Part shown: positions 1,527-4,166 of the stretch, one piece after another
Layout of the letters: each line of letters opens with the position of its first letter
Position numbering within the stretch: the stretch's first letter is position 1
DNA from: a virus
Lineage: Duplodnaviria; Heunggongvirae; Uroviricota; Caudoviricetes
Reading direction: 5' to 3' (one strand)
Virus record (IMG/VR): IMGVR_UViG_3300003337_000016
DNA: 4,166 nucleotides
Notes under the pieces: model-generated
Databases searched by the model: none
Seen by the model: the letters and a program-made list of their open reading frames with translations, nothing else
Told to the model about the DNA's origin: nothing
Translations under genes and position numbers: made by a program

Positions 1527-1595
1527 ATATTTACCTCATAACGTCTACTCAATTTGACGAGGTAATCATGGCACAGAAATAACGAATATTTTCAT

Positions 1596-2551: not shown

Positions 2552-2679
2552 ACGCACACCTCAGCGTCCTCTACTGTAGTGGCTGTACCAGTCCGTCGAG
2601 GTGTACGGATTTTCGGGAGCGACCCTAGACACAGCCTTTTCTTTCGTCGCTCAAAGTCTACTACTGTATACGCAACCAG

Positions 2680-3894
2680 TCATCCACATTTTCCGAACTT
2701 GCCATGCACCACGTTACCGCCATGTTCGAGCGAATCCATATAGTCAGCGTACCACTGGAGCATCTCCCGGCGACCATCCAGATATTGCGCATGGTTGTAT
2801 GTGCCACGAATTGAGTTTTTATCGACGTGTGCGAGCTGCGTCTCTATCCACGCGGTGTTATAGCCCTGCTCATGCAAAATGGTGCTCATGGTGTGCCGGA
2901 ATCCATGACCAGTAACGCGCCCGGCATAGCCGATACGACGAATGAGCACATTCATCGCCATTTCACTCATTGGCTTACTGTGGTGAATACGACCGGGGAA
3001 AATAAACTGATACTGGCCTGTCATGTTTTTTAACTGCTCCAGTATTTTTATCGCCTGTTCTGGTAATGGCACACAATGCGGACGGCGCATCTTCATTCGC
3101 TCTTTAGGCACTTCCCACAAACGATTATCAAAATCGATCTCCTGCCATTCTGCCTGCCGTAATTCCCCGGGTCTGACACCTGTCAGAATTAATAGCCGCA
3201 TTGCCAGTTTGACGATCTGGCTTCCGGTGTACGTATTAAAAACGCGGAAAAATTCCGGCAGTTCGTCGGCCTTCAAATAGGCGTAATGCTCTTTTTTATG
3301 TGGAGCAAATGCGCTCACCAGGTCAGGGGCTGGATTATATTCGGCGCGTCCGGTGATGATTGCGTACCGGAACACCTCGCCGCATCGCTGGCGAACCTTA
3401 CGCAATTTTTCAGTCGCACCACGGTCATTAAGACGGGAAAGAACCGCCAGCAATTCCATCGGCTTAATTTCTGCGATCGGCCTACCACCAATGTACGGAA
3501 AAACATCTTTTTCAAACGTCTCGATCATTTCCTCGGCGTATGACGATGACCACCTGTCGATCCGCTTTTCGTACCATTCGCGAGCAATACCCTCAAAAGT
3601 ATTGCCAAATTTGCTCGCCTGTTCTCGCTTTTGGGCTTTTCTGGCCTCACTTGGATTTATACCACCAGCAAGAAGCCTTTTAGCCTCATCCCTTGCCGCC
3701 CTGGCATCAGACAGAGACACATCAGGGTACACACCCAATGACAACATTTTGGGCTTTCCTGCAAACCTGTAGCGCAGTCGCCACCCTTTCGAACCGTTCG
3801 GCTCAATGAGCAACGAAAGCCCGTTACCGTCATTGAGTGTATAAGCCTTTTCTTTCGGCTTCGCGCGCCTGATGGCAAGGTCTGAAAGCAGCAT
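2680..3894 (-). CDS. int: Tyrosine recombinase, P4-type phage integrase family (404 aa from the preferred start)
   Basis: The N-terminus (LSDLAIRRAKPKEKAYTLNDGNGLSLLIEPNGSKGWRLRYRF...LGVYPDVSLSDARAARDEAKRLL) is the typical P4-type integrase arm-binding domain. The C-terminal catalytic signatures are present: TGVRPGELR (box I Arg), HGFRHT (His-x-x-Arg) and RGTYNHAQY (catalytic Tyr region). The longest ORF starts at 3933 with no Shine-Dalgarno; the in-frame ATG at 3894 is preceded by GGAG with 8-nt spacing and is the more likely start. Stop is TGA at 2680-2682. Confidence 0.9.
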   Translation of the reverse strand: MLLSDLAIRRAKPKEKAYTLNDGNGLSLLIEPNGSKGWRLRYRFAGKPKMLSLGVYPDVSLSDARAARDEAKRLLAGGINPSEARKAQKREQASKFGNTFEGIAREWYEKRIDRWSSSYAEEMIETFEKDVFPYIGGRPIAEIKPMELLAVLSRLNDRGATEKLRKVRQRCGEVFRYAIITGRAEYNPAPDLVSAFAPHKKEHYAYLKADELPEFFRVFNTYTGSQIVKLAMRLLILTGVRPGELRQAEWQEIDFDNRLWEVPKERMKMRRPHCVPLPEQAIKILEQLKNMTGQYQFIFPGRIHHSKPMSEMAMNVLIRRIGYAGRVTGHGFRHTMSTILHEQGYNTAWIETQLAHVDKNSIRGTYNHAQYLDGRREMLQWYADYMDSLEHGGNVVHGKFGKCG

Positions 3895-4166
3895 GTGTAT
3901 AGCTCCAAAAAATAAATTTTGTCCTATACGCATTACTATACACTTCTGTGTGTAGATTCTGGTAGTTGTGAGTAGACGTTAATAAACTATGTAAATGGCT
4001 GGAAGGTTTGATATTCGTGGGTTTGATGGACTTTAGTAGACGTTGAGAAATGTTTGTTTGGAGCGGGCGAAGGGAACAATACAACAAGCCAAAAGGCCAG
4101 TAATAAAGGCGAATTCGCGAGTTCTAAAATAAATTCTATACACATTTCTATACACATTTATCACTC
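3895..4166. promoter_or_regulatory. Repeat-rich region upstream of int; candidate int promoter/operator and attachment-arm binding sites
   Basis: Motif CTATACRC on the plus strand at 3924-3931, 3936-3943, 4136-4143 and 4148-4155, with an inverted copy (GTGTATAG) at 3895-3902 abutting the int start codon. AGTAGACGTT occurs twice (3971-3980, 4035-4044) and GGTTTGAT twice (4005-4012, 4020-4027). A perfect 10-bp palindrome GCGAATTCGC is at 4109-4118. On the int-sense strand a TATAGT -10-like hexamer lies about 41 nt upstream of the ATG. No tRNA-like sequence is present. Confidence 0.4.
4134..4157 (+). repeat. Perfect tandem direct repeat, 2 x 12 bp (TTCTATACACAT)
   Basis: Positions 4134-4145 and 4146-4157 are identical and contain the CTATACAC motif also found next to the int start. 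Confidence 0.85.

Follow-up and report, generated by a model that had tools for sequence, protein, structure and literature searches.

The attachment region of phage P4 is the closest described counterpart of the locus considered here. Its record (NC_001609) annotates 'attP arm sequence repeat' features together with the attP core, a layout that goes back to Pierson & Kahn 1987 as that work is cited in PMC7286903. The passages on P4 in PMC2951348 and PMC7286903 describe P4 Int as a repressor of the promoter that drives its gene, with Vis reducing int expression as well, and in KplE1 both IntS and TorI bind sites overlapping PintS, an arrangement predicted for most tRNA-associated integrases (PMC2951348). 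The typical targets of recombination directionality factors are direct repeats with a spacing of one helical turn, and bending of att DNA has been described for P4 Vis (PMC7498355). We analysed a 4,166-nt stretch of viral DNA (IMG/VR record IMGVR_UViG_3300003337_000016; hereafter the window), in which positions 3895-4166 lie immediately upstream of a gene for a P4-family tyrosine integrase (int). Our analysis indicates, with a probability that we put at roughly 0.85, that 3895-4166 is a complete attP-type region of the P4 type, carried by a ~14 kb island that resembles phage-inducible chromosomal islands (PICIs) and uses the tRNA gene glyU, with CTATACRC octamers as probable arm-type sites of Int and GTAGA-type repeats as candidate sites of the AlpA protein encoded nearby.

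The att core, TGGAGCGGGCGAAGGGAA, is 18 nt long, occupies 4059-4076 (+) and is the reverse complement of the last 18 nt of the tRNA-Gly(CCC) gene glyU. By megablast, the window was matched in 948 of 5,426 complete E. coli genomes, and among the best matches listed all end at 4076; the int-side matches in E. coli run past this position into tRNA-Gly. In strain ETEC4077, the int side passes into tRNA-Gly(CCC) glyU, beside actS and xdhA, and window 4059-4166 finds its match (98% identity) 14 kb away on the same strand, at the opposite end of that island. TGGAGCGGGCGAAGGGAA is the only part common to both island ends, the core being duplicated at the far end, and window 4077-4166 represents the far end of the island, which measures ~14 kb. 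The proximal arm is found in 81 complete genomes and the distal arm in 80. The core lies between the int-proximal CTATACRC copies and a distal tandem pair, and the order int, proximal arm, core, distal arm therefore defines an attP-type junction.

An earlier note on this DNA, made from the sequence alone, had expected the att core and its target tRNA just beyond position 4166. The core is instead inside the window, the distal copies belong to the opposite island end, and no tRNA gene is expected after 4166 because the junction is attP-type rather than tRNA-proximal. The direct repeat of the tRNA 3' end that the note had proposed for the other island boundary does exist, as the 18 nt of ETEC4077. 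It is true that int adjoins the tRNA in most genomes, as it would if 3895-4166 were an ordinary tRNA-proximal junction with all octamer copies in a single arm and with core and tRNA just past the end of the window. Such a junction is, however, hardly conceivable here, since the 18-nt 3' end of the tRNA is already present at 4059-4076, the window leaves the tRNA past 4076 to follow the island far end, ARAGORN detected no tRNA gene in the window, and genomes with tandem islands show island genes after the junction.

With both arms joined to a single core, the source of the window is either an array of islands in tandem or an island excised as a circle. A natural counterpart was recovered, only by exact-protein look-up, in E. 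coli CP024997.2, where islands in tandem are separated by a junction with the layout of the window, differing by 10 substitutions in 287 nt; this arm-core-arm junction leads into island genes, not into a tRNA. At that locus (L010, 9300-10020) the two islands are related and lie in tandem at glyU. A decayed tandem is seen at another locus (L006, 8800-10020), which consists of a distal arm, ~330 bp of island end, a truncated 5' int, a proximal arm and the tRNA, and in which the junction carries GGGAAT in place of GGGAAC.

The spacing of the sites follows that of P4 closely. Distances in P4 were counted from the ATG of MKLNARQ at 3914, four codons inside the annotated start, which is the one equivalent to the N-terminus of the family. 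Measured in this way, the inverted arm repeat is 3 nt from the ATG in P4 and 1 nt in the window, the tandem pair begins at 30 and 42 in both, three repeats phased by 10 bp begin at 59, 69 and 79 in P4 and at 58, 68 and 78 in the window, a single core-proximal repeat stands at 142 in both, and the core begins at 164 and 165, respectively. Past the core, the distal pair is found at 56 and 68 bp in P4 and at 60 and 72 bp in the window, so that the two layouts agree within 1-4 bp. The P4 phased repeats read CGGAT, CGGAC and CGGAA, followed by a core-proximal CGGAT, and occupy the same four places as the GTAGA-type repeats of the window. Judged by its sequence, the window region is the positional homologue of P4 attP, with both recognition words replaced.

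The first of these words, CTATACRC, has five matches in the window, all of them within 3895-4155, against 0.15 expected; five were reached in none of 200 dinucleotide shuffles. Four are on the plus strand (3924-3931, 3936-3943, 4136-4143 and 4148-4155) and one is on the minus strand (3895-3902), exactly the four direct copies and the single inverted copy at the int ATG that the earlier note had counted; the perfect 12-bp tandem that it reported at 4134-4157, TTCTATACACAT twice, is likewise present. The inverted site, which reads CTATACAC on the int-sense strand, abuts the int ATG (3892-3894) and sits between this codon and a GGAG Shine-Dalgarno sequence, the 12-mer AGCTATACACAT covering the A and T of the start codon. 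It is invariant in 14 diverged arms, and an inverted copy 0-3 nt from the ATG is also found in P4 and in most relatives. The int-proximal tandem pair (3922-3945, +) has a period of 12 bp and comprises CTATACGC at 3924-3931 and CTATACAC at 3936-3943, at +30 and +42, the position of the P4 pair. The int-distal arm (4077-4166, +), belonging to the far end either of this island or of a neighbour in tandem, contains the second pair, TTCTATACACAT twice. Far ends that have diverged, in E. coli and in Rahnella, keep this distal pair at 60-74 bp from the core; the island's last genes are oriented towards it, and no gene reads out of it.

Across the family, we took 80 relatives of Int (58-82% identity), which adjoin tRNA-Gly, Ser, Thr, Arg or SeC genes, and searched upstream of each int, blind to the motif, for the best direct repeat with 11-13-bp spacing. 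Most of them yield a 12-bp-spaced pair at about +26 to +32, together with an inverted copy 0-2 nt from the ATG. Positions and 12-bp spacing are fixed, and the arm word itself differs among relatives and follows the N-terminus of Int, not AlpA: CTATACRC accompanies N-termini of the MPLTDLEIRR type as well as the MLLSDLAIRR of the window, CTATACAA accompanies MKLTDLAIKR, RTACCCCC accompanies MKLNARQ.., and ATGCCCCC accompanies the N-terminus of a P4-like subset. Two relatives (L016 and L033) encode AlpA proteins 87% and 85% identical to that of the window, yet have different arm words. In the Int of the window, Arm-DNA-bind_3 (PF13356, residues 3-88, E 2e-26), Phage_int_M (PF22022) and Phage_integrase (PF00589) are all recognised by Pfam, and the protein is 39% identical to P4 Int (BLASTP, E 7e-97).

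Conservation within the glyU group points in the same direction. A 20-nt block, CTATACGCATTACTATACAC, is 100% kept in an arm that is only 73% identical overall, and both this block and GTGTATAG at the ATG are intact in arms at 86%, 85% and 73% identity, the flanks having changed. The same blocks are kept in the glyU islands of Shimwellia, Serratia, Leclercia, Symbiopectobacterium, Xenorhabdus and Rahnella, in which Int is 69-82% identical. Because the motif covaries with the arm-binding domain of Int on a fixed scaffold, the CTATACRC copies are best read as arm-type sites of a P4-family Int. The likeness to arm-type sites that had been noticed in the distal copies extends to the whole set, which flanks the core, stands at the positions of the P4 arm repeats, lies in conserved blocks and covaries with the Int N-terminus.

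Two other functions could be proposed for these octamers. They might be operators of a factor other than Int, such as AlpA or an island repressor, controlling int and a gene at the far end without any role in recombination; one copy indeed overlaps the ribosome-binding region and ATG of int, the proximal pair contains the hexamer TATAGT, and many islands possess dedicated repressors. Yet no far-end gene is read from the distal pair, the class of motif varies with the N-terminal domain of Int rather than with AlpA, the copies stand where P4 has its att arm repeats, and symmetric sites on either side of the crossover are what a heterobivalent integrase needs, which makes pure operators improbable. 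Replication iterons bound by the island primase/helicase are less probable still. Short tandem repeats near an island end do look iteron-like, and the island encodes a D5/P4-alpha-like primase; however, the P4 ori and crr repeats are other words of 8-10 bp, located elsewhere and annotated apart from the att arm repeats, one copy in the window overlaps the int start codon, and the motif covaries with Int, CTATACAC being kept in islands with differing replicases (D5-type primase, DUF927 or RepA helicase).

The second word belongs to a separate set of repeats. AGTAGACGTT occurs at 3971-3980 and 4035-4044. Two more copies, which the earlier note had missed, are on the minus strand: an exact one at 1540-1549 (-), shortly before alpA, and one with a single mismatch at 2653-2662 (-). 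Allowing up to one mismatch, these four matches compare with 0.14 expected, and four were reached in none of 200 shuffles. In the proximal arm, three repeats phased by 10 bp, GTAGATTCTG, GTAGTTGTGA and GTAGACGTTA, start at 3952, 3962 and 3972 (3952-3981, +), and the core-proximal copy of AGTAGACGTT (4035-4044, +), 15-24 nt from the core, is of the same motif class as this triplet; its GTAGAC recurs at 4036, 23 nt ahead of the core. The GTAGACG of the core-proximal copy is kept in 11 of 14 aligned glyU-type arms, the remaining three, from Rahnella, having ACGGAAGG, and arms whose targets are tRNA-Thr, Ser and Arg have it as well. A degenerate inverted arm site had been considered at 3948-3955 (GTGTGTAG), as a fourth of its kind, and was rejected: its TAGATT is kept whatever the class of the arm motif, and it corresponds to the first phased GTAGA repeat.

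The composition of these repeats varies between islands in a concerted manner. Distal and core-proximal copies change jointly, being GTAGAC in the window and CGGAN in P4 and Rahnella; the glyU islands of Rahnella keep the arm word CTATACAC but have CGGAC/CGGAA at the repeat positions, and are devoid of an AlpA of the window type. In selC islands the phased word is GTTGAC. Globally, phased chains of at least three identical 4-mers are found in 16 of 81 arms, against 1.2 after shuffling. At least two RTAGAC words are present in the arms of 25 of 31 loci that have a window-type AlpA downstream of int, against 3 of 30 loci that lack one (Fisher 2e-8, in a test that ignores phylogeny), and GTAGAC-type words recur in the alpA leader of the window and of many relatives. 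The paper on CP4So gives no AlpA binding site.

Because directionality factors bind helix-turn-spaced direct repeats and bend att DNA, we assign the GTAGA-type repeats to AlpA, as candidate sites whose attribution is somewhat better than even. They could also be bound by Int, as additional arm-type or core-type sites, or by a host protein. A core-proximal block, GGACTTTAGTAGACGTTGAGAAATGTTTG, is kept between islands that use different tRNAs, which an Int domain or a host factor could explain, and this possibility, although the less favoured of the two, keeps an appreciable probability. On the other side, the motif (GTAGAC, CGGAN or GTTGAC) varies without regard to either the arm motif or the target tRNA, tracks AlpA of the window type, is repeated exactly in the alpA leader here and in many relatives, and shows a 10-bp phasing that is typical of directionality factors.

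The alpA leader deserves a separate mention. At 1532-1560 (-) it reads CCTCGTcaaattgAGTAGACGTTATGAGG; the GTAGAC word lies inside this inverted repeat, which also overlaps the Shine-Dalgarno sequence. In relatives the leader reads CTCGTAAACCGCAATAGACGTTACGAGG, with TAAAC and TAGAC 10 bp apart. This repeat may be an autoregulatory site of AlpA, a hairpin sequestering the Shine-Dalgarno sequence, or both.

The position of strand exchange could be narrowed down with the help of insertions outside glyU. In one genome, the same int lies beside cas genes, with the junction TGGAGCGGGCGAAG followed directly by TGCGTC. Intact cas5e and the core have only CTTCGCC in common. The attachment region and cas5e sharing nothing else, the crossover is therefore confined to 7 bp, GGCGAAG (CTTCGCC in the tRNA sense), at 4066-4072 (+). 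We wrote out the predicted reciprocal junction, that is, the distal arm, TTCC, CTTCGCC and the rest of cas5e, and then searched for it; it is present in two complete genomes. In ETEC1747 both reciprocal junctions flank an island of ~10 kb that splits cas5e, isolate A3176 (L098) has another island variant with the same right junction, and a cas5e junction is present at locus L008 too. The tandem junctions and the reciprocal cas5e junctions are natural and indirect evidence that precise site-specific recombination occurs at the core.

These insertions have a consequence of their own. The gene cas5e (casD), part of the type I-E CRISPR-Cas operon, is split by such islands in three genomes and by at least two island variants (junctions at 7929 and 18045 in L097, at ~9822-9835 in L008 and at ~16030 in L098; intact site at ~900-930 in L096), which presumably would disable Cascade. 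In A3176 (L098, NZ_CM163382.1), the far end of the island lies in cas5e and its int end apparently beside glyU, which suggests a large rearrangement, either inversion or deletion, between the two att loci.

In this region the int-sense strand reads GTGTATAGTAATGCGTATAG ... GGAGCTATACACATG. The -10-like element pointed out in the earlier note, TATAGT, is present on this strand (3940 to 3935), matches the -10 consensus at five of six positions and is the only good candidate. It had been described as bracketed by inverted octamer copies; it lies instead within the proximal tandem pair. As the -10 element is inside this pair and the phased repeats cover the -35 position, int expression would be expected to respond to both Int and AlpA, and autorepression by Int is a reasonable inference for the window element. 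The control by Int or AlpA that the earlier note had put forward is in this sense plausible. In P4 (L095, 3970-3990), TTGAAA is kept as the -35 element between phased repeats 1 and 2; many relatives with the arm word RTACCCCC (L015-L094) likewise keep TTGAAA, and the lineage of the window has ACCAGA.

Intasomes of the P4 and lambda types generally depend on a bending protein. The second direct repeat of the earlier note, GGTTTGAT, falls in a loosely conserved TTGAT-rich block (4005-4027, +) that is a weak candidate for a bending site of a host factor similar to integration host factor (IHF). Of the two repeats reported there besides the octamer, AGTAGACGTT stood up to shuffling, and GGTTTGAT is marginal and not significant: its two copies (4005-4012 and 4020-4027) were also reached in 2 of 200 shuffles, with a word picked post hoc. 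GGTTTGAT is poorly kept in relatives, and cTTGATtttactGG is partly kept.

The anatomy of the sequence, with core and arms, the natural junctions and the covariation are observed directly, and these elements can be combined into a working model. A heterobivalent Int would bind the CTATACRC sites through its N-terminal Arm-DNA-bind_3 domain, namely the inverted copy at the ATG and two pairs, one lying 30 and 42 nt upstream and the other 60 and 72 nt past the core. The 18-bp core would be the substrate of the catalytic domains of Int, with strand exchange inside GGCGAAG (4066-4072). A factor of the AlpA/Vis type would bind the GTAGA-type repeats and bend the int-proximal arm for excision, and the same sites would make int expression responsive to Int, through repression, and to AlpA.

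Several observations, besides the phylogeny-blind association test mentioned above, weigh against this interpretation. Which protein binds which site, and with it the regulation of int, we infer from position, covariation and homology. Four relatives (L060-L063) deviate from the expected correspondence, having GTAGAC in the arm and a GTTGAC-like word upstream of alpA. At the -35 position, beneath the phased GTAGA repeats, the window has ACCAGA, a match at only two of six positions, and a scan of 3700-4166 retrieved no sigma-70 consensus promoter, a terminator scan being likewise empty; because the consensus scan was empty and the best candidate has so poor a -35 element, the int promoter was not located. 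The IHF consensus WATCAANNNNTTR has no match in 3895-4166 at up to one mismatch, and we therefore do not claim the GGTTTGAT copies as IHF sites. Finally, exact searches retrieved the arm-core-arm junction from no viral contig, GTDB genome contig or metagenome contig, and it is present in none of the 5,426 complete RefSeq genomes of E. coli; the attP-type configuration is therefore rare. The whole window had no megablast match among phage records.

The divergent -35 position invites a more adventurous interpretation. The int promoter of the glyU sub-family may have lost its -35 element, in which case int might require AlpA as an activator, where in P4 and KplE1 the factor is a co-repressor, and the motifs of Int and of the directionality factor would have been swapped independently on a rigid scaffold. 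We consider this proposal tentative and, taken as a whole, rather unlikely. Genetic work on CP4-57 reportedly suggested that AlpA raises intA expression, which would fit a promoter without a -35 element. If the proposal were true, the same sites would have two uses, in the architecture of excision and as a switch that turns int on, and would couple int expression to the induction of alpA by a helper phage, and independent motif swaps on a rigid scaffold would give rise to mutually orthogonal recombination modules.

The corrected map of the element, with the core inside the window and between the arms, has practical value: with the core and both arms in hand, the window can be used as it stands to design primers and reporter constructs. 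It supplies testable recognition words, CTATACRC for a widespread lineage of glyU-targeting integrases and GTAGAC for their AlpA partner, in addition to a 7-bp crossover. More generally, the attP layout described for P4 in 1987 holds across islands of Enterobacterales that use at least five tRNA genes, both recognition motifs changing, which should be useful for the annotation of island ends and for the engineering of orthogonal integrases.

The remainder of the window, according to the open reading frame list and Pfam, contains four genes, all on the minus strand: an AntA-type gene (451-1251); alpA (1329-1526), encoding a winged-helix protein of the AlpA/Vis family (Pfam Phage_AlpA); an open reading frame of 267 aa without a Pfam family (1754-2557); and int (2680-3894), identified as a P4-family tyrosine integrase of 404 aa by its homology to P4 Int as well. 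Over 54 aa, AlpA shares 37% identity with P4 Vis (E 2e-14), and it is presumed to be the recombination directionality factor as well as a regulator. The int start codon is the ATG at 3894-3892, and the RefSeq annotation of ETEC4077 has the same 404-aa start. An alternative start at 3933 was rejected, as translation would read through the arm sites and it is the ATG at 3894 with which the N-termini of relatives align. The segment 2568-2635 (-), located between int and the 267-aa reading frame, matches the Rfam int-alpA RNA (RF02996; 45.5 bits with a gathering score of 35.8, E 2e-7), and the one-mismatch GTAGAC-type word, AGTAGACTTT at 2653-2662 (-), is situated 18 nt upstream of this match. Five copies of the palindrome ACCCT(A/C)AGGGT, partly within a 33-bp tandem duplication, lie at 1594-1740, between alpA and the 267-aa reading frame, and look like an operator array for some regulator. 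Outside the window, several E. coli strains have the ETT2 type III secretion cluster next to the far end of the glyU island (left flanks of L012 and L014), and variants of the island in Shiga toxin-producing E. coli bear several genes for PerC-family (Pch-like) regulators.

Among known systems, P4 attP is the most similar, sharing an Int with Arm-DNA-bind_3, a core equal to the 3' end of a tRNA gene and a factor of the AlpA/Vis family. It differs in the arm motif (RTGCCCCC, ATGCCCCC, in P4 and CTATACRC, CTATACAC, in the window), in the directionality-factor-type motif (CGGAN and GTAGAN, respectively) and in the target, which is leuX with a 20 bp core in P4 and glyU with an 18-bp core here; the P4 -35 element TTGAAA is not present in the window, and the host element is a PICI-like island without the sid, delta and psu genes of P4. 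In the attL/intS region of KplE1 (CPS-53) the int promoter overlaps att, with arm-type sites over the -10 and directionality-factor sites over the -35 element, an arrangement that the window would share, and here as there int and the directionality-factor gene are transcribed separately (PMC2951348). Its integrase, however, is of another lineage, its P' sites contain TAAA and its layout is not positionally homologous; the regulation of KplE1 was shown experimentally, whereas that of the window is deduced from its sites.

More distantly, attP of lambda (P1, P2, X1-X1.5-X2, F, H, COC', P'1-3) also serves a heterobivalent Int. Its arm sites likewise flank the core, one arm including a tandem array; Xis sites in helical phase lie between them and the core, and the overlap measures 7 bp. 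Lambda attP has neither sequence nor positional homology to the window region, lambda int is not read out of the att region, and lambda has clear IHF sites where none is recognisable here. As to gene content, CP4-57, with AlpA and IntA (SlpA), and PICIs of Gram-negative bacteria such as EcCICFT073, EcCIEDL933 and EcCIMP1 (PMC11773190) have the same gene set beside a tRNA-type site, comprising int, alpA, an antirepressor-like gene, a primase and a PerC-like regulator; AlpA-family proteins in these elements are regulators, excisionases or both. Gene content and size agree with those of a PICI (~10-15 kb, at a fixed att site, induced and packaged by a helper phage), for which the window element is a candidate. 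Set beside all of these, the element is largely ordinary: it is of a known kind, to which it adds new recognition words and a mapped crossover, and it leaves the current understanding of such attachment regions in place.

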